Shown here in pieces: positions 17,888 to 60,995 of a stretch of 64,000 bases of DNA. Made by a program: the position numbers and the translations under genes. The DNA is from Enterobacteria phage vB_EcoM_IME281. The notes under the pieces are model-generated. The model ran no database searches. It had not been told where the DNA came from and was given only the letters and a program-made list of their open reading frames with translations. Where the stretch lies: the sequence record MH051913, one strand, 5' to 3'. The stretch's first letter is position 1; the number at the start of each line of letters is the position of its first letter.

Positions 17888-18415
17888 ATGAAATTTTTAA
17901 CTCCCATTTATCTAACCTTAATGCACGCCTTCGCTGAACGCGCCATTGAACGTTTAGACTCGGACCAATATACCTGGTACGAACCCACTTCAAGAATGCA
18001 AGAGTTTGGTACTCTTCGACTTGACGGCGGGCGTCAAACAGGTAAAACAAGTGCCCTTGCCCAGTTCGCAGCTGATTGGGTTTCCAAGGGTAATGATGTG
18101 ATTGTTATGTCAAGTTCTTCGCATCGCTCACGAGAAATCTGTAATATAATAAAAAGGGTTTCTAAGGCCCAACCGCACCTTCAAGTAGAAGGTCCTGGGT
18201 TTGTTGTATATGATACCGTGCGTTCATTTTTAGACGAAGACAACTTCCATAAGTATCGTGGTCTATCAGTTACTCGATTATTGATTATTATCGAAGAGCC
18301 AATGCGCCTTCCATCGATGGATAAGTTCTATGAAGCTTACCAGGTAATGATTAACAAATTTATGTGCCAGGGTTCTAAACCTCTGCCACTGTTCTTTGTG
18401 ATAGGAATGCAATGA
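17888..18415 (+). CDS. P-loop NTPase-like hypothetical protein (175 aa)
   Basis: Walker A-like GGRQTGKTS; hydrophobic stretch LLIIIEE as possible Walker B. Confidence 0.45.
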   Translation: MKFLTPIYLTLMHAFAERAIERLDSDQYTWYEPTSRMQEFGTLRLDGGRQTGKTSALAQFAADWVSKGNDVIVMSSSSHRSREICNIIKRVSKAQPHLQVEGPGFVVYDTVRSFLDEDNFHKYRGLSVTRLLIIIEEPMRLPSMDKFYEAYQVMINKFMCQGSKPLPLFFVIGMQ

Positions 18416-18708
18416 TGACTGATGAAGAGCTTTTTGAGTTCTGCTATTTCTCACGTAAGGTTCGAAGAGAGGACCTTACTGCAAATTTCGAATATGCTTA
18501 TTTCTATCCATTAGAGTATGTATTCATGTCAGGGCCCTTTAAGGGCTCTCGTTTTAGATGTCATGCCCCAAGCATCCGATTAATGAAACAGGTTCCTTAC
18601 TTCACTCTCGAGTTCATCTCTGGGCCGTGTAAGGGTATTATTACTCGCAGTCTCTTGACGTATGACCAAGAGATTCATATGATTTCTGACTGGAAAAAAT
18701 ATGTCTAA
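18412..18708 (+). CDS. hypothetical protein (98 aa)
   Basis: ORF track; ATGA coupling. Confidence 0.45.
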   Translation: MMTDEELFEFCYFSRKVRREDLTANFEYAYFYPLEYVFMSGPFKGSRFRCHAPSIRLMKQVPYFTLEFISGPCKGIITRSLLTYDQEIHMISDWKKYV

Positions 18709-18919
18709 ATTGACTATTGAAGGTTCTGAAGAAGTTCTGAAGATGTTTGTTGACTGGTTCCACGAGCAAGGCGAACAAGGCTTTATGGAATGTTGGGGCG
18801 GCGGCCAATGGAATGGTAAAGAAATTGTTTACCCGACCACGTATATCTCTGTTAGTGGTGGATATGATGGCCTTCGTTTTGTAGAATATGATATTGCATC
18901 TGATGAGGAAGTAAAATGA
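18701..18919 (+). CDS. hypothetical protein (72 aa)
   Basis: ORF track. Confidence 0.45.
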   Translation: MSKLTIEGSEEVLKMFVDWFHEQGEQGFMECWGGGQWNGKEIVYPTTYISVSGGYDGLRFVEYDIASDEEVK

Positions 18920-19194
18920 TTGAAGATATCAAAGGTTACAAGCCGCATACCGACGATAAAATCGGTAAAGTGAATGCCATTAAAGATGCTGAAGTTCGAT
19001 TAGGCTTAATCTTTAAAGCATTAGAAGAAGAATACGTTGAAGCCTTTACATGCTCAGGTGTCGATAAAATGAGTGATGAAGAATTCGACCTCACTCATGA
19101 ACGTCTCGCCCAGATTCGTACGGCAATCGAACGCTTGAAAGAAGCATCCATGTGGGCCTGTCGTTCCGTTTTCCAACCTGAAGAAAAATACTAA
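18916..19194 (+). CDS. hypothetical protein (92 aa)
   Basis: ORF track; ATGA coupling. Confidence 0.45.
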   Translation: MIEDIKGYKPHTDDKIGKVNAIKDAEVRLGLIFKALEEEYVEAFTCSGVDKMSDEEFDLTHERLAQIRTAIERLKEASMWACRSVFQPEEKY

Positions 19195-19199
19195 AAGCA

Positions 19200-19228
19200 G
19201 TTTACATCTCCTGTAGACGTGGTACTAT
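19200..19228 (+). promoter_or_regulatory. early promoter/stem-loop cassette upstream of regB
   Basis: GTTTAC, 17 nt, TACTAT; CTCCTGTAG/CTACAGGAG inverted repeat; near-identical to 16912 copy. Confidence 0.65.
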
Positions 19229-19256
19229 AGACCTATCAACTACAGGAGATTACAAA

Positions 19257-19715
19257 ATGTCAGAAATTAATTCAGAAGTATTCATCCGCCGCAACAAATT
19301 ACGTCGTCAGTTCGAAACCGAATTTCGTGAACTTAACGCGTCCATCAAAAAAGCCGCCATTAAGAGCGGTGTCCCAGCTTTCTTTATTAAGTACTCTAAT
19401 CACTTGTTGGACCGTGCTATCCAACGTGAAATTGACGAAAAATATGTTTTCTCTTTGTTCAAGAAGCTCCATAACCATGTTAAAGAAATCCATGAATTTT
19501 TAATCCAGGAGCCTCTTCCTGACATAGAATCTGAAATTGTCCCAGGTAAAGTGTATCGTCCACTGCGTCTCGAGATTACTGATAAAACCTTATGGTTGGG
19601 TATGACCGTAGATCGTAAACATCCTGATAAAGGATATTCATTAAAATGTCGTATGGCATTTGTTAACTCTAAACGTTTAGAAGGTAAAACCAGCACGAAA
19701 GTAATCTATCTTTAA
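19257..19715 (+). CDS. regB: RegB site-specific endoribonuclease
   Basis: 152 aa; EVFIRRNKLRR..HLLDRAIQREIDE..RLEITD..CRMA matches recalled T4 RegB. Confidence 0.8.
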   Translation: MSEINSEVFIRRNKLRRQFETEFRELNASIKKAAIKSGVPAFFIKYSNHLLDRAIQREIDEKYVFSLFKKLHNHVKEIHEFLIQEPLPDIESEIVPGKVYRPLRLEITDKTLWLGMTVDRKHPDKGYSLKCRMAFVNSKRLEGKTSTKVIYL

Positions 19716-19727
19716 TAATGAGGTCTC

Positions 19728-20267
19728 ATGAAAAAAGTATTAGCCACTTTACTATTGACAGTTAGTATGTCTGCCTATAGCGTAGAGCCTACTTTCAGTA
19801 ATGAACAACTCGATAATTTACATTATGCGTATGCTTTCGGTGAACAATACCAAAAGTCGGGAAAGTTCAAAGAAAACCCTAATCAAAAAGGATTAGGATA
19901 TATAATGGCCGGATTATTATGGCAGGAATCATCTGCTGGAATTAATCAAGGTTTAAATAAAGATAAGCACCATGCTTATGGCATGTTCCAAAATTACTTG
20001 CCTACGTTAAGAAGTCGTGTTAAACAGGTAGGTTGGAAGATGTCAGACAAAGAAATAATCCGTATGGTCCAAAAACGACAGAACAGTGCCTCTTGGGCCT
20101 ACATTGAGCTGTCTTATTGGATTGATGTTCACAAAGGTGACCTGAGAAAAGCGATTGCTTCTTATAATGCGGGCTGGAATGTCAAAGCAGGCAGTAAATA
20201 TGCTTCCGAAGTTCTAGAAAAGGCCAATTACCTAAAATCTAAAAAGATGTTTGAGGCGGTGTATTAA
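19728..20267 (+). CDS. secreted lytic transglycosylase-like protein (179 aa)
   Basis: N-terminal signal peptide; LLWQESS with Glu, and AYNAGW motif resemble SLT domain. Confidence 0.45.
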   Translation: MKKVLATLLLTVSMSAYSVEPTFSNEQLDNLHYAYAFGEQYQKSGKFKENPNQKGLGYIMAGLLWQESSAGINQGLNKDKHHAYGMFQNYLPTLRSRVKQVGWKMSDKEIIRMVQKRQNSASWAYIELSYWIDVHKGDLRKAIASYNAGWNVKAGSKYASEVLEKANYLKSKKMFEAVY

Positions 20268-20624
20268 ATGATTAAGCAGATGACTATAGCGCTTATGTTG
20301 ATTGCTCCGGGAGTATTAGCGTCACAAGTTGATGATAGTAATAATTCAATTGTCGAGTATGCTACCCGTACAGCAAAAGATTATTGTCATCCGAGTAATA
20401 CTGAATGCATTATCGAATTCAGTTCAAAAATCACAGCTGCTTTTAAAGATGGCCAGAATGACGTAGAGCATCGCCGAATGAAAGAGAAAACTCTTTCTAA
20501 AAGATACGAGCAACGTCTAAACGTTACTGAATGTATTCCATCTGATAAAAAGTACAAAGAAATGTGCGCGTCTATGGTAGACAGACTCGTTGATTCATAC
20601 AATCGAGGATTAAATTCTAAATGA
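20268..20624 (+). CDS. secreted/periplasmic hypothetical protein (118 aa)
   Basis: Signal-peptide-like N-terminus MIKQMTIALMLIAPGVLA. Confidence 0.45.
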   Translation: MIKQMTIALMLIAPGVLASQVDDSNNSIVEYATRTAKDYCHPSNTECIIEFSSKITAAFKDGQNDVEHRRMKEKTLSKRYEQRLNVTECIPSDKKYKEMCASMVDRLVDSYNRGLNSK

Positions 20625-21100
20625 TTATTGATTATATTAAGGGCGATATTGTCGCCCTATTTCTCCAAGGTAATATTATTGCACACGGGTGCAACTGTTT
20701 CCACACAATGGGTTCTGGCGTAGCCGGACAGTTGGCAAAGGCTTATCCAAAAGTTTTAGAAATAGATAAAACCTCTACTGAATATGGTTCTCGTGATAAA
20801 TTAGGCAATATGTCTATTGTTTTTAAACATAAGCCTACAGGTTTTGGCATGTGCTATAACTTGTATACGCAATACGAACCAGGCCCTAATCTTGATTATG
20901 GCGCTTTAGTAAATTGTATGATAGAATTAAATCTACAAGCAGAAACCCTTTTGTTTAAACCAAGAATTTATATCCCTCGCATTGGTTGTGGTATTGCAGG
21001 TGGAGATTGGGAAAAGGTTTCTAAATTAATCAACATGTTTACTCCTGACATTGATCTGATAGTGGTGGATTATGAAAGCCCATTACCCGCATCCGTTTGA
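20621..21100 (+). CDS. macro domain protein (ADP-ribose binding/hydrolase fold)
   Basis: GDI..IAHGCNCFHTMGSGVAGQL and IGCGIAGG match macro-domain glycine-rich motifs. Confidence 0.5.
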   Translation: MIIDYIKGDIVALFLQGNIIAHGCNCFHTMGSGVAGQLAKAYPKVLEIDKTSTEYGSRDKLGNMSIVFKHKPTGFGMCYNLYTQYEPGPNLDYGALVNCMIELNLQAETLLFKPRIYIPRIGCGIAGGDWEKVSKLINMFTPDIDLIVVDYESPLPASV

Positions 21101-21284
21101 CCCTAAAAACAAAGCGGAAATTATTCGACGCTGGACCGAAACTCGAGTAACTAAATGTCCTATAAAAAGTCAACACAACACCGATAAATGGTATATTGGC
21201 GAATATGTTGAATATACTTTTATAGATAAAAATAAACGTAAACAGCACGTAGAAGAATATTGCTTAAAGGTACAATGGTTATGA
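21072..21284 (+). CDS. hypothetical protein (70 aa)
   Basis: ORF track; overlaps upstream gene by 29 nt. Confidence 0.35.
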   Translation: MKAHYPHPFDPKNKAEIIRRWTETRVTKCPIKSQHNTDKWYIGEYVEYTFIDKNKRKQHVEEYCLKVQWL

Positions 21285-21487
21285 GCCAAGCCCGAATTCT
21301 TAAAACGGCTAAATGTGAAAAATGCGAATGGCCAGTAATCGCAGCTTTATGCAACGATGAAATGGAATGTGAATTTGATTACTGGTGGTACTGTTCTAAT
21401 AAAGGATGTTCTAATCATAAGGGTGAAGGTTTTCATTCTGGTTATTGTGAACATCCTAAATTTGTGCGATATGGTGAACCTAAATGA
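21260..21487 (+). CDS. Cys-rich small protein (75 aa)
   Basis: CEKCEW..CNDEMEC..CSNKGCSNH..C arrangement suggests a zinc-binding fold. Confidence 0.45.
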   Translation: MLKGTMVMSQARILKTAKCEKCEWPVIAALCNDEMECEFDYWWYCSNKGCSNHKGEGFHSGYCEHPKFVRYGEPK

Positions 21488-21657
21488 GTTTGAGTAAAGA
21501 ACAAAAAGATAAATTGTTTGAGCTTATCCATGAGCTCATGGAACTTAATACAGAATGTGAATTTGATAACTCTCTAGACTGGGATTGGCATGCTGGTGAA
21601 GAAGATGAGTTTTCTAAAAAGGAAAATGAATTAATTGCTTATGTAAATAGTCTTTAA
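21484..21657 (+). CDS. hypothetical small acidic protein (57 aa)
   Basis: Not in ORF track (<60 aa); ATGA overlap with upstream stop; ends 10 nt before tk. Confidence 0.4.
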   Translation: MSLSKEQKDKLFELIHELMELNTECEFDNSLDWDWHAGEEDEFSKKENELIAYVNSL

Positions 21658-21666
21658 GAAGGTAAT

Positions 21667-22239
21667 ATGGCTCAACTTTATTTTCACTATGCTGCAATGA
21701 ATTCTGGGAAAACTGCTTCATTGCTAACAGCCGCTCATAACTACAAAGAACGCGGTATGGGCGTACTCCTTTTAAAGCCTGCGATAGACAATAGAGAATC
21801 AAGCCATAGCATTTCATCTCGTATAGGGATTAGCCAGGAGGCTAATGCAGTGACTCCGGATATGGACCTATACGAGTTCTATCGTTGGGCTGAATCTCAA
21901 AAAGATATCCACTGTGTATTTGTGGATGAAGCACAGTTCTTAGAACCGGCACAGATAAAACAACTGGCGAAGATAGTAGACAATTATAATGTTCCAGTTA
22001 TGTGCTATGGGCTAAGAACTGATTTTCAGGGTAAACTGTTTCCTGGCTCTGCTGAATTACTCGCTACAGCAGATAAACTCGTTGAGTACAAAGGTGTGTG
22101 CCACTGTGGCCGTAAAGCTACTATGACTGCTAGGGTCCAAGATGGTATCGCAATTAAGGACGGCGCCCAAGTTTCTATAGGTGGCAACGATTCTTACGTG
22201 TCATTGTGCAGGAAGCACTGGATAGAAATAACGAGTTGA
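21667..22239 (+). CDS. tk: thymidine kinase
   Basis: GAMNSGKT P-loop, FVDEAQF, C-terminal CxCGxxA..R zinc motif; 190 aa; T4 synteny. Confidence 0.9.
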   Translation: MAQLYFHYAAMNSGKTASLLTAAHNYKERGMGVLLLKPAIDNRESSHSISSRIGISQEANAVTPDMDLYEFYRWAESQKDIHCVFVDEAQFLEPAQIKQLAKIVDNYNVPVMCYGLRTDFQGKLFPGSAELLATADKLVEYKGVCHCGRKATMTARVQDGIAIKDGAQVSIGGNDSYVSLCRKHWIEITS

Positions 22240-22246
22240 GGGTACT

Positions 22247-22525
22247 ATGGACCTAAATTCAAAGATTTTAATTCTAGCGTTCGCTGTGGCTATTTCTTAC
22301 ATTGTTCTTTCGCCTATCATGGATGATGCGGCTTACAAAAGAGAGATAGAAGTTGTAGCAGCGACGTATAATGCTAATAATAAAGAATGCCCTAATAAAA
22401 ATGGAATGGATTTAATTAAAGCACATTATATGCTTTCCATTACCTCGCCTATACAGAGGAATTGGGTTGAATATAATTTTAACGACGTGTTCTATTCTTA
22501 TTGTCGTAAGCTTAAAAAGCTATAA
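22247..22525 (+). CDS. hypothetical protein with N-terminal TM helix (92 aa)
   Basis: ORF track; hydrophobic N-terminus. Confidence 0.45.
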   Translation: MDLNSKILILAFAVAISYIVLSPIMDDAAYKREIEVVAATYNANNKECPNKNGMDLIKAHYMLSITSPIQRNWVEYNFNDVFYSYCRKLKKL

Positions 22526-22528
22526 ATA
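22521..22528 (+). promoter_or_regulatory. possible late promoter TATAAATA
   Basis: Exact octamer but about 90 nt upstream of next ATG. Confidence 0.3.
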
Positions 22529-22618
22529 GTAATACTAACCGTAGAGCTTTAGCTTTTGGTAATCGCTATCGGTTAAGGCCGAAAGGCAAATTCGTATAAA
22601 ATAACAAAGGACTTTTGT

Positions 22619-22912
22619 ATGGGTATTTTCCGTACAGTGGCTTGTATCCTTATGATTGGATGTTTAAGCCCAACATCTTCACTAGCAAACAAATCCGACC
22701 CTAAATTGATGGACGCCTTTGCTAGTAGTGCGATGCCAGTTTATGCGCAAATGAGTAAACCTAGTGTAAAGGCCTCCGAAGACTACTGGGCTTATGTAAC
22801 TGCTTCTTGGAAAATTTCAAATTGCAATACAATAGAGTCTTGCTCGATTGAAGGTCGGGCTATCGGAGAACGATACGCTAAACTAATGAAGGTAGATGAT
22901 GAAATTCAATGA
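22619..22912 (+). CDS. putative lipoprotein (97 aa)
   Basis: Signal peptide with lipobox-like LIGC. Confidence 0.45.
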   Translation: MGIFRTVACILMIGCLSPTSSLANKSDPKLMDAFASSAMPVYAQMSKPSVKASEDYWAYVTASWKISNCNTIESCSIEGRAIGERYAKLMKVDDEIQ

Positions 22913-23282
22913 TTTCGTACTTAGTCGAGGGACTGAAGTAGATTCTTATATTGGTTGGCTGTTGGTTTCTTTAGCCTATTTTAAGTCAGCCCATTTGGAA
23001 ACCAAAAGCTATGCAAGACACAAAGCATATGACTTCTATTATACAGAAGTTCAAGGACCACTAGACCAGTTCAGTGAACAGTATTTAGGATTTAGTGGCA
23101 AAGAATATAAAGCATCACTACCATCTGCTTCAGAACTGCCTAAAGACCCCATAGATTTTCTTGATGAACTTATTAAAGCGTCTGATAAAATCTACAAAAA
23201 TCTTCCTAAGGCCATCCAATCGACTTTGGACGACATCACTGGTGTCTTTTACCAGACTAAGTATTTGTTAACGTTAGAATAA
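22896..23282 (+). CDS. hypothetical protein (128 aa)
   Basis: ORF track; followed by terminator. Confidence 0.45.
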   Translation: MMKFNDFVLSRGTEVDSYIGWLLVSLAYFKSAHLETKSYARHKAYDFYYTEVQGPLDQFSEQYLGFSGKEYKASLPSASELPKDPIDFLDELIKASDKIYKNLPKAIQSTLDDITGVFYQTKYLLTLE

Positions 23283-23287
23283 TCAAA

Positions 23288-23314
23288 GGTCTCACTTCGG
23301 TGGGACCTTTTTTC
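23288..23314 (+). terminator. rho-independent terminator
   Basis: GGTCTCAC-TTCG-GTGGGACC hairpin plus T6. Confidence 0.65.
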
Positions 23315-23322
23315 GTTTAGGT

Positions 23323-23351
23323 GTTTACTTCCTCTAGGAACGTGATACTAT
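23323..23351 (+). promoter_or_regulatory. early promoter/stem-loop cassette
   Basis: GTTTAC, 17 nt, TACTAT; core GTGATACTATAGACCTATCAACTA. Confidence 0.6.
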
Positions 23352-23379
23352 AGACCTATCAACTAATGAGGAGAACAGT

Positions 23380-23616
23380 ATGAAACTTACAAGTACTACG
23401 GTTTCATTGGAATATGAAATCAATAACCGCCTCCTTGAGATTAAGATATTCGACGACCGAAGTATCTTTGCTGACTACCGAGGGTACAGAATTCGCCTAG
23501 AAAAGGACGAGCTCAAGGAACCACGGCTCCTTAAAGACACATTAAAGGGATGTGGGTGTAAGCTGAAGACCACTCAAGCCCAAGAATTAATTTCTACTAT
23601 CAACAAATACTGGTGA
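23380..23616 (+). CDS. hypothetical protein (78 aa)
   Basis: GAGGAG RBS; cassette promoter upstream. Confidence 0.5.
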   Translation: MKLTSTTVSLEYEINNRLLEIKIFDDRSIFADYRGYRIRLEKDELKEPRLLKDTLKGCGCKLKTTQAQELISTINKYW

Positions 23617-58574: not shown

Positions 58575-58576
58575 GT

Positions 58577-58606
58577 GTTTACAACGGTCTATGGTAGTGA
58601 TACTAT
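58577..58606 (+). promoter_or_regulatory. early promoter/stem-loop cassette
   Basis: GTTTAC, 18 nt, TACTAT; core GTGATACTATAGACCTATCAACTAATGAGGAG. Confidence 0.6.
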
Positions 58607-58634
58607 AGACCTATCAACTAATGAGGAGTTAAAA

Positions 58635-58928
58635 ATGAAAAAGTTATTAATCGCAGCAATCCTTACAGTAGCATCATGTGGCACAGCTCCAGTTACAGCT
58701 GGGTTGGATAAAGACCTTTGTGAATGGTCTATGACTGCAGACCAAGAATCAGTTGAACATCAGATTTATGCTGATATCATGAACATCACTAAACGTGACC
58801 GTCCTGATATGGTTAAAGAAGTATCCGACCAATTGGCTTCTAGCGGTGTTATGCAGTATAACTATGTTCTGTACTGTGATGCTAATTTCGATAACAAAAA
58901 TATCGTTAAAGAGGTGACAGGTGAATAA
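58635..58928 (+). CDS. putative periplasmic lipoprotein (97 aa)
   Basis: M21 of track ORF; signal peptide with lipobox-like VASC; size and position similar to T4 sp (61.3), positional only. Confidence 0.4.
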   Translation: MKKLLIAAILTVASCGTAPVTAGLDKDLCEWSMTADQESVEHQIYADIMNITKRDRPDMVKEVSDQLASSGVMQYNYVLYCDANFDNKNIVKEVTGE

Positions 58929-59361
58929 GATTAACAGAAATTTGGTTATCAAAAAACTTCGTTGTAAAAATCCAAATGCCCAGGCATACAGAATGTATTG
59001 GAGCGACGACCATCAATACCTGGGTTATTTTATTGTTGATAGCGATGATAGGATTGTATTTGCCCATAAACTTCTTAATAGAGAATTAAACCACTGGCAA
59101 GAACTTATTGCTGTTAAGTCTAAATTATTTTCGCGCAATACAATACACCAATTGGTTTATTTTTTCGCTGATGGTTTTCCTGACAAGGTTGAATTTGAAG
59201 GATTCGAATTTAAAGATATCCTCCCGGACAATGAATTTAACGACTGCGTTAATATGGATATCCCTAGCAAGTATATCAAAAACAGTCTGTTGAAAATTCT
59301 GGAAGCTCCGGTTTATTCAATCGACGACCAGATTTTTAATGCCTTTATGAATCGAGGTTGA
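58921..59361 (+). CDS. hypothetical protein (146 aa; GTG start)
   Basis: ORF track; AGAGG RBS before GTG. Confidence 0.4.
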   Translation: MNKINRNLVIKKLRCKNPNAQAYRMYWSDDHQYLGYFIVDSDDRIVFAHKLLNRELNHWQELIAVKSKLFSRNTIHQLVYFFADGFPDKVEFEGFEFKDILPDNEFNDCVNMDIPSKYIKNSLLKILEAPVYSIDDQIFNAFMNRG

Positions 59362-59362
59362 T

Positions 59363-59584
59363 ATGTTTGTTTTAACTCAATTCTCTAAAGCGGTATATGG
59401 TTACTCTTGTCAGTGGGAAGTCTTTATTGATTCTCCTTCACCTAAGTATGGTGTTTTTGGACGAGTAACTACTCAAGCTTATGTTGCACGGCCAACTAAG
59501 CGCCAGCTTCGTAAACTTAAAAAGGCCCATCGTCAACTGATTAAAAGAAGGGAACAATATGAGTGCAATGTGTACGGGCTCTAA
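59363..59584 (+). CDS. hypothetical basic protein with RPTKRQ motif (73 aa)
   Basis: ORF track; ARPTKRQLRKLKKAHRQLI paralogous to 58278 product. Confidence 0.45.
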   Translation: MFVLTQFSKAVYGYSCQWEVFIDSPSPKYGVFGRVTTQAYVARPTKRQLRKLKKAHRQLIKRREQYECNVYGL

Positions 59585-59750
59585 GATTTCTGTATTCGAG
59601 TTGTTCGAAGAATATGAAATCGTATCAAAAGACCAAGAAGCTATCCATGTTATTGCTGATGATGGTGTGACCTGGATTATCCCACTTTACCACGAAGATA
59701 CGTACGAAGTCACTGACGCCAACGGTGACAAAGCTATTTTCGTAATATAA
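59559..59750 (+). CDS. hypothetical protein (63 aa)
   Basis: ORF track. Confidence 0.4.
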   Translation: MSAMCTGSKISVFELFEEYEIVSKDQEAIHVIADDGVTWIIPLYHEDTYEVTDANGDKAIFVI

Positions 59751-59966: not shown

Positions 59967-60995
59967 ATGTCATATGTCGATAGAGAATTTGCTGTACGTG
60001 CCTTGAATTACCAACCTAAATTCAGACAAGTAACTGGTAGTGATTTTAAATTAAATTGTCGTTGTCGTGTATGCGGTGACTCCCAAAAGGATGAGAACAA
60101 AGCTCGTTTTTGGGCCTATCCGGCCAATGACGGTTCCATTATGTTGCATTGTTTTAACTGCGACTATTCAGCAGGAATTAAGAAGTACCTATATGAATAT
60201 GAGCCTGATTTATATCGCGAATATATTCTTGAGAAACATAAAGAGCAATCGTTCGGGAGACAAGCTGCACCTAAGGTGGAGATATCTGAAAAAATTAAAG
60301 CTAAGATGCCTGTCATCGAAAAGCTTAATTTCTGCGAACGATTAGATAGAATGCCGAAGGACCATCCTATTATCAAATATGTGACGCTGCGTTGCATTCC
60401 TGAAAATAAATGGAATCGACTATGGTTTACTAAAGAATGGCCTGCATTGGTTAACTCAGTTAATCCAGGGACCTATTCTAAAGAAATGCCTGAGCCTCGT
60501 TTGGTTATTCCTATTTTCAATAAGGATAAACAAATAGAAAGTTTCCAGGGTCGAGCTTTACGTAAAGATGCTCCACAAAAATATATTACAATAAAAGCTC
60601 ATGACCAAGCTACAAAAATATATGGAATGGATACGGTTGATGAACGTCAATTGGTATGGGTTATGGAAGGACCGATTGATTCTTTATTTGTCCCTAATGC
60701 CATAGCAATTACTGGCGGGTCTTTGGACTTGGCTATGGTTCCATGTAAAGAAACTCGTGCTTGGGTAATGGACAATGAACCCCGTCATCCTGACACAATT
60801 AAGCGTATGCAACGATTAGTTGATGCCGGCGAAAGGGTCCTATTCTGGGACAAGGCTCCATGGCCTTCTAAAGATATAAATGATATGGTTATGAAAGATA
60901 AAGCTGATATAAATGATATATTGGCGTATATGAAAGCTAATATAGCCCAAGGTCTAATGGCAAAAATGAGGCTTTCAAAATATTCTAAAATTTAG
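59967..60995 (+). CDS. 61: DNA primase gp61
   Basis: 342 aa (same as T4 gp61); N-terminal zinc ribbon CRCRVCGDS..CFNCDY; position after 41. Confidence 0.85.
   Translation: MSYVDREFAVRALNYQPKFRQVTGSDFKLNCRCRVCGDSQKDENKARFWAYPANDGSIMLHCFNCDYSAGIKKYLYEYEPDLYREYILEKHKEQSFGRQAAPKVEISEKIKAKMPVIEKLNFCERLDRMPKDHPIIKYVTLRCIPENKWNRLWFTKEWPALVNSVNPGTYSKEMPEPRLVIPIFNKDKQIESFQGRALRKDAPQKYITIKAHDQATKIYGMDTVDERQLVWVMEGPIDSLFVPNAIAITGGSLDLAMVPCKETRAWVMDNEPRHPDTIKRMQRLVDAGERVLFWDKAPWPSKDINDMVMKDKADINDILAYMKANIAQGLMAKMRLSKYSKI

Follow-up and report, generated by a model that had tools for sequence, protein, structure and literature searches.

The tk.4 locus and its gene neighbourhood

The window, by which we mean the whole 64,000-nucleotide stretch of DNA analysed here, derives from a Dhakavirus, a T-even phage of the JS98/JS10 type, and across the 8 kb surrounding the gene described below it shares 94.7% identity with the Dhakavirus (Tevenvirinae) Escherichia phage JS10. 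This gene, tk.4 (adfM), lies on the plus strand at 20621..21100, with its ATG at 20621 and its stop codon ending at 21100 as read from the window sequence. It encodes a protein of 159 amino acids (aa) that is predicted to consist of a single macrodomain. The first-pass annotation of this DNA had placed an open reading frame (ORF) at exactly these positions, and the GDI, IAHGCNCFHTMGSGVAGQL and IGCGIAGG stretches that it singled out are all present. Two short ORFs on the opposite strand inside tk.4 (35 and 69 aa) were without support and were dismissed.

To define the gene neighbourhood, T4 neighbour proteins were mapped onto the window by tblastn. The matches comprise regB (19266-19706, 59% identity to T4), vs.1 (19728-20261 in ORF 19728..20267, plus strand, 67%), vs (20268-20621 in ORF 20268..20624, plus strand, 46%), tk.4 (20621-21085 in the ORF that runs to 21100, plus strand, 55%), tk.3 (21072-21281, 71%) and tk (21667-22233, 70%). 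The order regB-vs.1-vs-tk.4-tk.3-tk equals that annotated in T4 and JS10, so that the earlier placement of the gene in the regB-tk region stands, with the gene sitting in the slot between vs and tk.3. BLASTP aligned window Tk.4 to T4 Tk.4 without gaps over 155 residues at 55% identity (E=7e-68). Because the T4 gene order and this gapless identity coincide, we assign the gene, by sequence and position, as the orthologue of T4 tk.4.

Both genes immediately upstream of tk.4 encode proteins with signal-peptide-like N-termini. The orthologue of vs (valyl-tRNA synthetase modifier) has a signal-peptide-like start, MIKQMTIALMLIAPGVLASQ, as does T4 Vs (MTKILVLCIGLISFSASASA), an unexpected feature given that the stated target of Vs is a cytoplasmic enzyme. 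No Pfam family matched the vs orthologue. According to the HIDEN-SEQ preprint, no T4 gene is depleted more strongly than vs during growth in minimal medium (bioRxiv 10.1101/2025.11.20.689424). The vs.1 orthologue also carries a signal-peptide-like N-terminus. The label 'lytic transglycosylase-like' that had been proposed for it is plausible but unproven, with the SLT domain scoring 17 bits, below the cut-off of 21.3.

At the nucleotide level, Rfam matched nothing at the gathering threshold over 18000-23500, and a repeat search of 20000-21700 found no repeats within tk.4. A 19-nt direct repeat, GAATGTGAATTTGAT[T/A]ACT, is present further downstream at 21365..21383 and 21553..21571 (95% identical, 188 nt apart). 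Its copies lie inside two small genes 3' of tk.3, each encodes ECEFD, and the repeat probably reflects chance or a paralogous motif.

Translation start and expression

The translation start region of tk.4 spans 20605..20624 on the plus strand, with a GAGGA at 20605-20609 located 11 nt upstream of the ATG (20621-20623). The ATG overlaps the TGA stop codon of vs (20622-20624), and the resulting 4-nt overlap (ATGA) is also found in T4 and JS10. The two genes may be translationally coupled. At the other end of the gene, the overlap with tk.3 measures 29 nt (21072..21100) here and in JS10 compared with 4 nt in T4, owing to a 4-residue C-terminal extension of Tk.4.

A consensus scan of 18300-22400 returned 14 promoter-like matches, against 12.4 in shuffled sequences. 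As this count is not above chance, we restrict ourselves to one plausible site upstream of regB, a possible early-type promoter at 19201..19228 on the plus strand (TTTACA, a 16-nt spacer and TACTAT, the -10 element being preceded by TG). This site could drive the packed run regB-vs.1-vs-tk.4-tk.3-...-tk, in which genes overlap or are separated by intergenic gaps of at most 12 nt. Scanning 18300-22400 revealed no terminator-like sites on the plus strand within the regB-to-tk run, and a search for MotA boxes (middle promoters) yielded nothing convincing. tk.4 is probably made early, as part of this packed run, which would place its product in the cell before or during replication.

Tk.4 as a macrodomain of the ALC1/TARG1-like class

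Tk.4 matched the Pfam Macro family (PF01661) over profile positions 2-117 of 118, with 32.1 bits (E=1.2e-7) relative to a curated gathering cut-off of 22 bits, and matched PHROG 335 with E=1.9e-71. By sequence alone, it also matched the solved macrodomains BT1257 (3e-11), yeast Poa1p (8e-10) and SCO6735 (1.7e-7) and, more weakly, M. tuberculosis DarG (1.8e-5) and human TARG1 (2e-3); SCO6735 is nearer to it in sequence than DarG is. Structure prediction from an alignment with the T4 row left out gave an alpha/beta macro fold. Model confidence was low solely in the 4-residue C-terminal extension (pLDDT 68 for the last block). The top Foldseek match of this model was human TARG1 (OARD1; E=2e-10, TM 0.72-0.82). 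Tk.4 contains both glycine loops, G31-x-G33 and G122-x-G124-x-x-G127-G128, as well as N25.

The nearest relatives by sequence and fold all belong to the ALC1-like/TARG1-like class, with TARG1, DarG, SCO6735/BT1257 and Poa1p. Profile matches and the structural model together identify Tk.4 as a genuine macrodomain of this class. The macro-domain call of the first-pass annotation is borne out by the profile matches, the sequence relatives and the predicted fold, and structure prediction, in which a different fold would by its own criterion have refuted the call, returned the macro fold.

Tk.4 belongs to a large, familiar and mainly phage-borne family. GenBank holds near-identical copies (up to 95% at the protein level) under the labels 'tk.4', 'phosphatase', 'Poa1p-like', 'macro domain protein', 'RNase III inhibitor' and 'hypothetical'. 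Relatives detected by tblastn (E up to 1e-5) occur in 2,761 of 50,697 phage records, and a profile search against 1.84 billion cluster representatives retrieved 1,187 clusters at E<=1e-30 and 9,466 at E<=1e-10. Protein length stays at or below 302 aa in all 259 relatives. One bacterial member, P0087 from Pelagimonas, has unrelated neighbours, with no darT nearby.

A distant homologue in Streptomyces phage Annadreamy (NC_048719.1, 82555..83019; 33% identity) adjoins a Sir2 gene. Sirtuin-macro pairs have been described in actinophages (Iyer et al. 2022). The Annadreamy pairing fits this description and shows the same clade in a different, toxin-antitoxin-like context.

A glutamine-type active site

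Codons 20-38 (IAHGCNCFHTMGSGVAGQL; 20678..20734, plus strand) correspond to strand beta-2 together with the first of the two glycine loops that line the ADP-ribose cleft. This segment includes H22, N25 (codon 20693-20695) and G31-x-G33, and across 80 homologues residues H22, G23, N25, C26 and G33 never vary. The family signature N-L-Y-T-Q is encoded by codons 80-84 (20858..20872, plus strand), with Q84 specified by CAA at 20870-20872. The second, phosphate-binding glycine loop spans codons 119-130 (PRIGCGIAGGDW; 20975..21010, plus strand), and its residues P119, G122, G124 and W130 likewise show no variation among the 80 sequences. Conservation extends to a set of 260 sequences in which 150 clusters (50% identity) are represented: Q84 and Y82 are each present in 260/260 and N80 in 259/260, while N25 accounts for all 258 residues at its column (258/258). 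H22, G122 and G124, invariant among the 80 sequences, are nearly invariant among the 260.

We compared these positions with those of characterised macrodomains. In a profile alignment, Q84 aligns with the Gln of BT1257 and with K84 of TARG1; in a MAFFT alignment including two DarGs and PhiKZ gp104, it aligns with the FPTK lysine of DarG, which is K80 in the T. aquaticus protein, and with the Lys of gp104. Both alignments place A126 of Tk.4 at the position of the catalytic D125 of TARG1. N25 aligns with N23 of PhiKZ AdfM, N27 of SCO6735 and the corresponding Asn of DarG. The SCO6735 equivalents of H22, N25, Q84, G122 and G124 are H24, N27, Q85, G126 and G128, once the numbering of its PDB chain, which is shifted by 20 residues, is taken into account. 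H22 also aligns with H23 of Poa1p, a residue that has been mutated, in our own reading of the pairwise alignment. On these alignments, the active site of Tk.4 follows the Gln-type pattern seen in SCO6735 and not the lysine type of DarG and TARG1.

Window Tk.4 and JS10 Tk.4 are 81% identical overall. Their catalytic motifs are identical, and residues ~44-78 (window ~20750..20855) are near-unalignable between the two, with indels. This variable segment comprises the end of helix 44-52, the following loop and the 64-84 hairpin, a distribution that points to a surface patch of mosaic origin or rapid evolution.

Reported anti-DarTG2 role of T4 Tk.4 and activities of related macrodomains

A T4 transposon library has been screened on a DarTG2-expressing host in the HIDEN-SEQ preprint of 20 November 2025 (bioRxiv 10.1101/2025.11.20.689424). 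Of the T4 genes, tk.4 alone is reported to be depleted on this host, and a clean tk.4 knockout rendered T4 DarTG2-sensitive. The gene was named adfM, for anti-DarT factor Macrodomain, and the authors deem it likely that ADP-ribose is removed from DNA enzymatically (bioRxiv 10.1101/2025.11.20.689424). In keeping with this, earlier work found full DarTG2 resistance to persist in T4 without adfA and adfN. AdfA and AdfB have been described as direct DarT inhibitors. T4 tk.4 itself has been annotated as an 'A1pp motif' gene since the T4 genome paper.

Biochemical evidence comes from other macrodomains. PhiKZ gp104, also named AdfM, strips DarT2-placed ADP-ribose off single-stranded DNA (ssDNA) in vitro (Cell Rep 2026, PMC13309987). 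The N23A substitution weakens its activity, gp104 rescues DarT2 toxicity, and the protein is imported into the phage nucleus (PMC13309987). SCO6735 clears DarT-placed ADP-ribose from ssDNA thymidine faster than DarG or TARG1. Its activity is abolished by Q85A, nearly abolished by N27S and substantially cut by G128E, and its mechanism has been proposed to be water-mediated, in an arrangement that positions the distal ribose. Catalytically dead SCO6735 (Q85A) inhibits DarT in vitro more than DarG K80A or TARG1 K84A. TARG1 also reverses thymidine-ADP-ribose on DNA, and both TARG1 and SCO6735 deADP-ribosylate protein in addition (auto-modified PARP1 E988Q).

The gene, its macro domain and its anti-DarTG2 role have thus already been described, and near-identical sequences are public. 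Reversal of DarT-type ADP-ribosylation, one of two roles put forward in the first-pass annotation, gains support by transfer from the screen and knockout of the T4 orthologue, since the window gene shares with T4 tk.4 a gapless identity of 55% and the same genomic slot.

Proposed mechanism and alternative explanations

By analogy with T4, we consider it likely that window Tk.4 acts enzymatically against DarTG2. In the mechanism we propose, the host toxin DarT2 would place ADP-ribose on thymidines of single-stranded phage DNA. Tk.4 would bind this DNA-linked ADP-ribose and, most likely, hydrolyse the ribose-base bond; removal of the ADP-ribose would restore replicable DNA and permit phage growth on DarTG2 hosts. 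Within the cleft, Asn25 would hold Gln84 in place, with His22 and both glycine loops beside it. The ORF, its fold and class, its orthology to T4 tk.4 and the conservation of its active site are observed in the window gene, and we infer from its relatives and the T4 orthologue that the protein has the same activity and role.

Several points weigh against this enzymatic role. The T4 evidence is a preprint, in which enzymatic removal is graded as 'seems likely' (bioRxiv 10.1101/2025.11.20.689424). Identity to T4 Tk.4 is just 55%, and residues ~44-78 vary strongly among close relatives. The DNA-contacting lysines of SCO6735, K34 (S32 here) and K89 (in a loop that is shorter here), are not kept. 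A comparative-genomics survey argues, moreover, that for the majority of phage macrodomains the substrates are soluble derivatives of ADP-ribose (Iyer et al.), chiefly small ADP-ribose molecules. Together with the similarity to Poa1p, this survey lends support to a different enzyme, namely a Poa1p-like ADP-ribose-1''-phosphate phosphatase, a deacetylase of O-acetyl-ADP-ribose or an enzyme that breaks down ADP-ribose-derived immune signals. We regard such a soluble substrate as unlikely. Among the screens quoted from the preprint, the sole phenotype of the T4 orthologue is DarTG2-specific, the label 'A1pp phosphatase' is a motif-based annotation with no assay behind the name, and SCO6735, which among characterised Gln-type enzymes is the closest, has ADP-ribose on DNA as a substrate. 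Inhibition of DarT in vitro by dead SCO6735 (Q85A) raises a further objection, as protection could be partly non-enzymatic. Tk.4 might even protect mainly by binding, sequestering or blocking the toxin or shielding modified DNA, in the manner of the direct DarT inhibitors AdfA and AdfB. This is distinctly improbable, given that H22, N25, Q84, G122 and G124, all counterparts of SCO6735 residues that matter for catalysis, are invariant or nearly so in 260 relatives, which argues for selection on catalysis, and that Tk.4 is without the C-terminal DarT-binding domain of DarG.

Two other substrates have only a slim chance of being the main one. As an eraser of protein ADP-ribosylation, Tk.4 would tune the marks set by Alt, ModA and ModB or undo the action of a host transferase on phage proteins. 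Alt, ModA and ModB modify arginine, and macrodomains of the ALC1/TARG1-like class are not known to cleave the arginine-ADP-ribose linkage. TARG1 and SCO6735 do act on protein too, and T-even phages encode ADP-ribosyltransferases (Alt, cited in bioRxiv 10.1101/2025.11.20.689424). Action on phage-made ADP-ribosyl marks, the second role put forward in the first-pass annotation, is nevertheless without support: that preprint reports no phenotype of the kind for T4 tk.4. RNA, in the form of uracil-linked ADP-ribose or ADP-ribosylated RNA ends, is a comparably improbable main substrate. TARG1 and TARG1-like macrodomains, bacterial ones included, efficiently hydrolyse uracil-ADP-ribose, and TARG1 takes ADP-ribose off phosphorylated RNA ends. 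Against this, SCO6735 is inactive on 5'-phosphate-linked and 2'-OH-linked RNA ADP-ribosylation, T4 is still strongly restricted, despite tk.4, by the mRNA ADP-ribosyltransferase system CmdTAC, and the DarTG2 phenotype points to DNA. An activity on RNA could coexist with one on DNA instead of taking its place.

Returning to enzymatic removal of ADP-ribose from DNA, we tentatively consider a broader, joint reading, which we hold to be possible but on balance doubtful. Tk.4 would represent a separate, largely phage-borne ALC1-like subclass and not a captured DarG; its anti-DarT2 function would have been reached independently of the DarG-like PhiKZ AdfM; and it would use SCO6735-like, lysine-free and water-mediated chemistry, possibly as a broad base eraser. 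The invariant N-x-Y-T-Q, the short loop and the lack of a DarT-binding domain may mark this subclass. Tk.4-type AdfM might be a general eraser of thymine- and uracil-base ADP-ribose on DNA and RNA and, if so, would cover more toxins than DarT2.

Other anti-DarTG genes and wider relevance

We also sought AdfA (T4 61.2, 208 aa) in the window, where just its C-terminal 14-15 residues match. The T4 61.2/AdfA slot, between sp (58575..58928) and the gene 61 primase (59967..60995), holds a 146-aa ORF on the plus strand (58921..59361). This ORF is 100% identical to AdfA over 14 aa by tblastn and scored 16 bits against Pfam AdfA (cut-off 27), over profile positions 197-211 of 211. Its product is either AdfA in a truncated or strongly diverged form, or another protein that has the tail in common. 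Small ORFs at 59363..59584 and 59559..59750 occupy the remaining gap before gene 61. Given the T4 marker positions, we expect AdfN (gene 30.3) to lie outside the window.

DarTG ADP-ribosylation of phage DNA is a widespread bacterial defence, and T-even phages appear to carry a layered anti-DarTG toolkit consisting of AdfA, AdfN and AdfM. An intact AdfM in a Dhakavirus could aid in predicting host range on DarTG2-bearing E. coli, which is relevant to the choice of therapeutic phages.

Comparison with known systems

T4 Tk.4/AdfM is of the same size as the window protein, occupies the same vs/tk.3 slot with the same ATGA overlap, and shares the invariant residues, including Q84. It differs in 45% of residues and in its phosphate loop (IGAGIGKGNW, compared with IGCGIAGGDW in the window protein), and the window protein has the 4-residue C-terminal extension. 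The DarTG2 phenotype on record is that of T4 only.

SCO6735 of Streptomyces coelicolor and BT1257 of Bacteroides, both bacterial and ~30% identical to window Tk.4, have the same pairing of Gln and Asn (Q85/N27 in SCO6735, Q84/N25 here). The mobile loop of the SCO6735 type, deemed a subclass trait by its authors, is 5 residues longer than that of DarG and TARG1, and BT1257 has a 6-residue insertion directly after the Gln relative to the Tk.4 family profile. By contrast, the loop of window Tk.4 is 6 residues shorter than the SCO6735 type and equals that of TARG1 and DarG in length. At the position of SCO6735 K34 stands S32, where most relatives have Ala, and the part of the loop that bears K89 is absent. 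With no extended mobile loop and both DNA-positioning lysines missing, we rejected full membership of the SCO6735 subclass.

DarG, the antitoxin of DarTG2, shares 16-23% identity with window Tk.4 and has K80 in place of the Gln. It measures ~330-400 aa and carries a C-terminal DarT-binding domain, which the 159-aa Tk.4 is without. The PADLOC DarG model matched Tk.4 over positions 2-143 of 329 with 28.8 bits, and the NCBIfam DarG equivalog scored 28.9 bits, compared with a cut-off of 250. No darT lies beside tk.4 in the window, where the neighbours are vs and tk.3. We rejected an orphan-DarG identity on grounds of length, DarG model scores, the Lys-to-Gln exchange and the lack of darT.

PhiKZ gp104, the chimallivirus AdfM, is likewise a stand-alone anti-DarTG2 macrodomain of a phage, bears the same name and has N23 at the position of N25. 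Its identity to window Tk.4 is 20% (BLASTP E=0.001), and it is itself DarG-like: it keeps the FPTK lysine, scored 132.9 bits with the DarG model and matched M. tuberculosis DarG at E=9e-25. The two AdfM types belong to different, unrelated lineages that share a name and presumably do the same job. Human TARG1 has a loop of equal length after the catalytic position, but its K84/D125 dyad corresponds to Q84/A126 in window Tk.4. Yeast Poa1p aligns weakly with Tk.4 in its C-terminal half, and its substrate, ADP-ribose-1''-phosphate, is soluble. Beyond prior knowledge, the alignments set the Tk.4 type apart as a Gln-type, short-loop lineage distinct from DarG and PhiKZ AdfM. The sole advance is accordingly mechanistic: T4-type AdfM has a Gln-type site, unlike DarG and PhiKZ AdfM.
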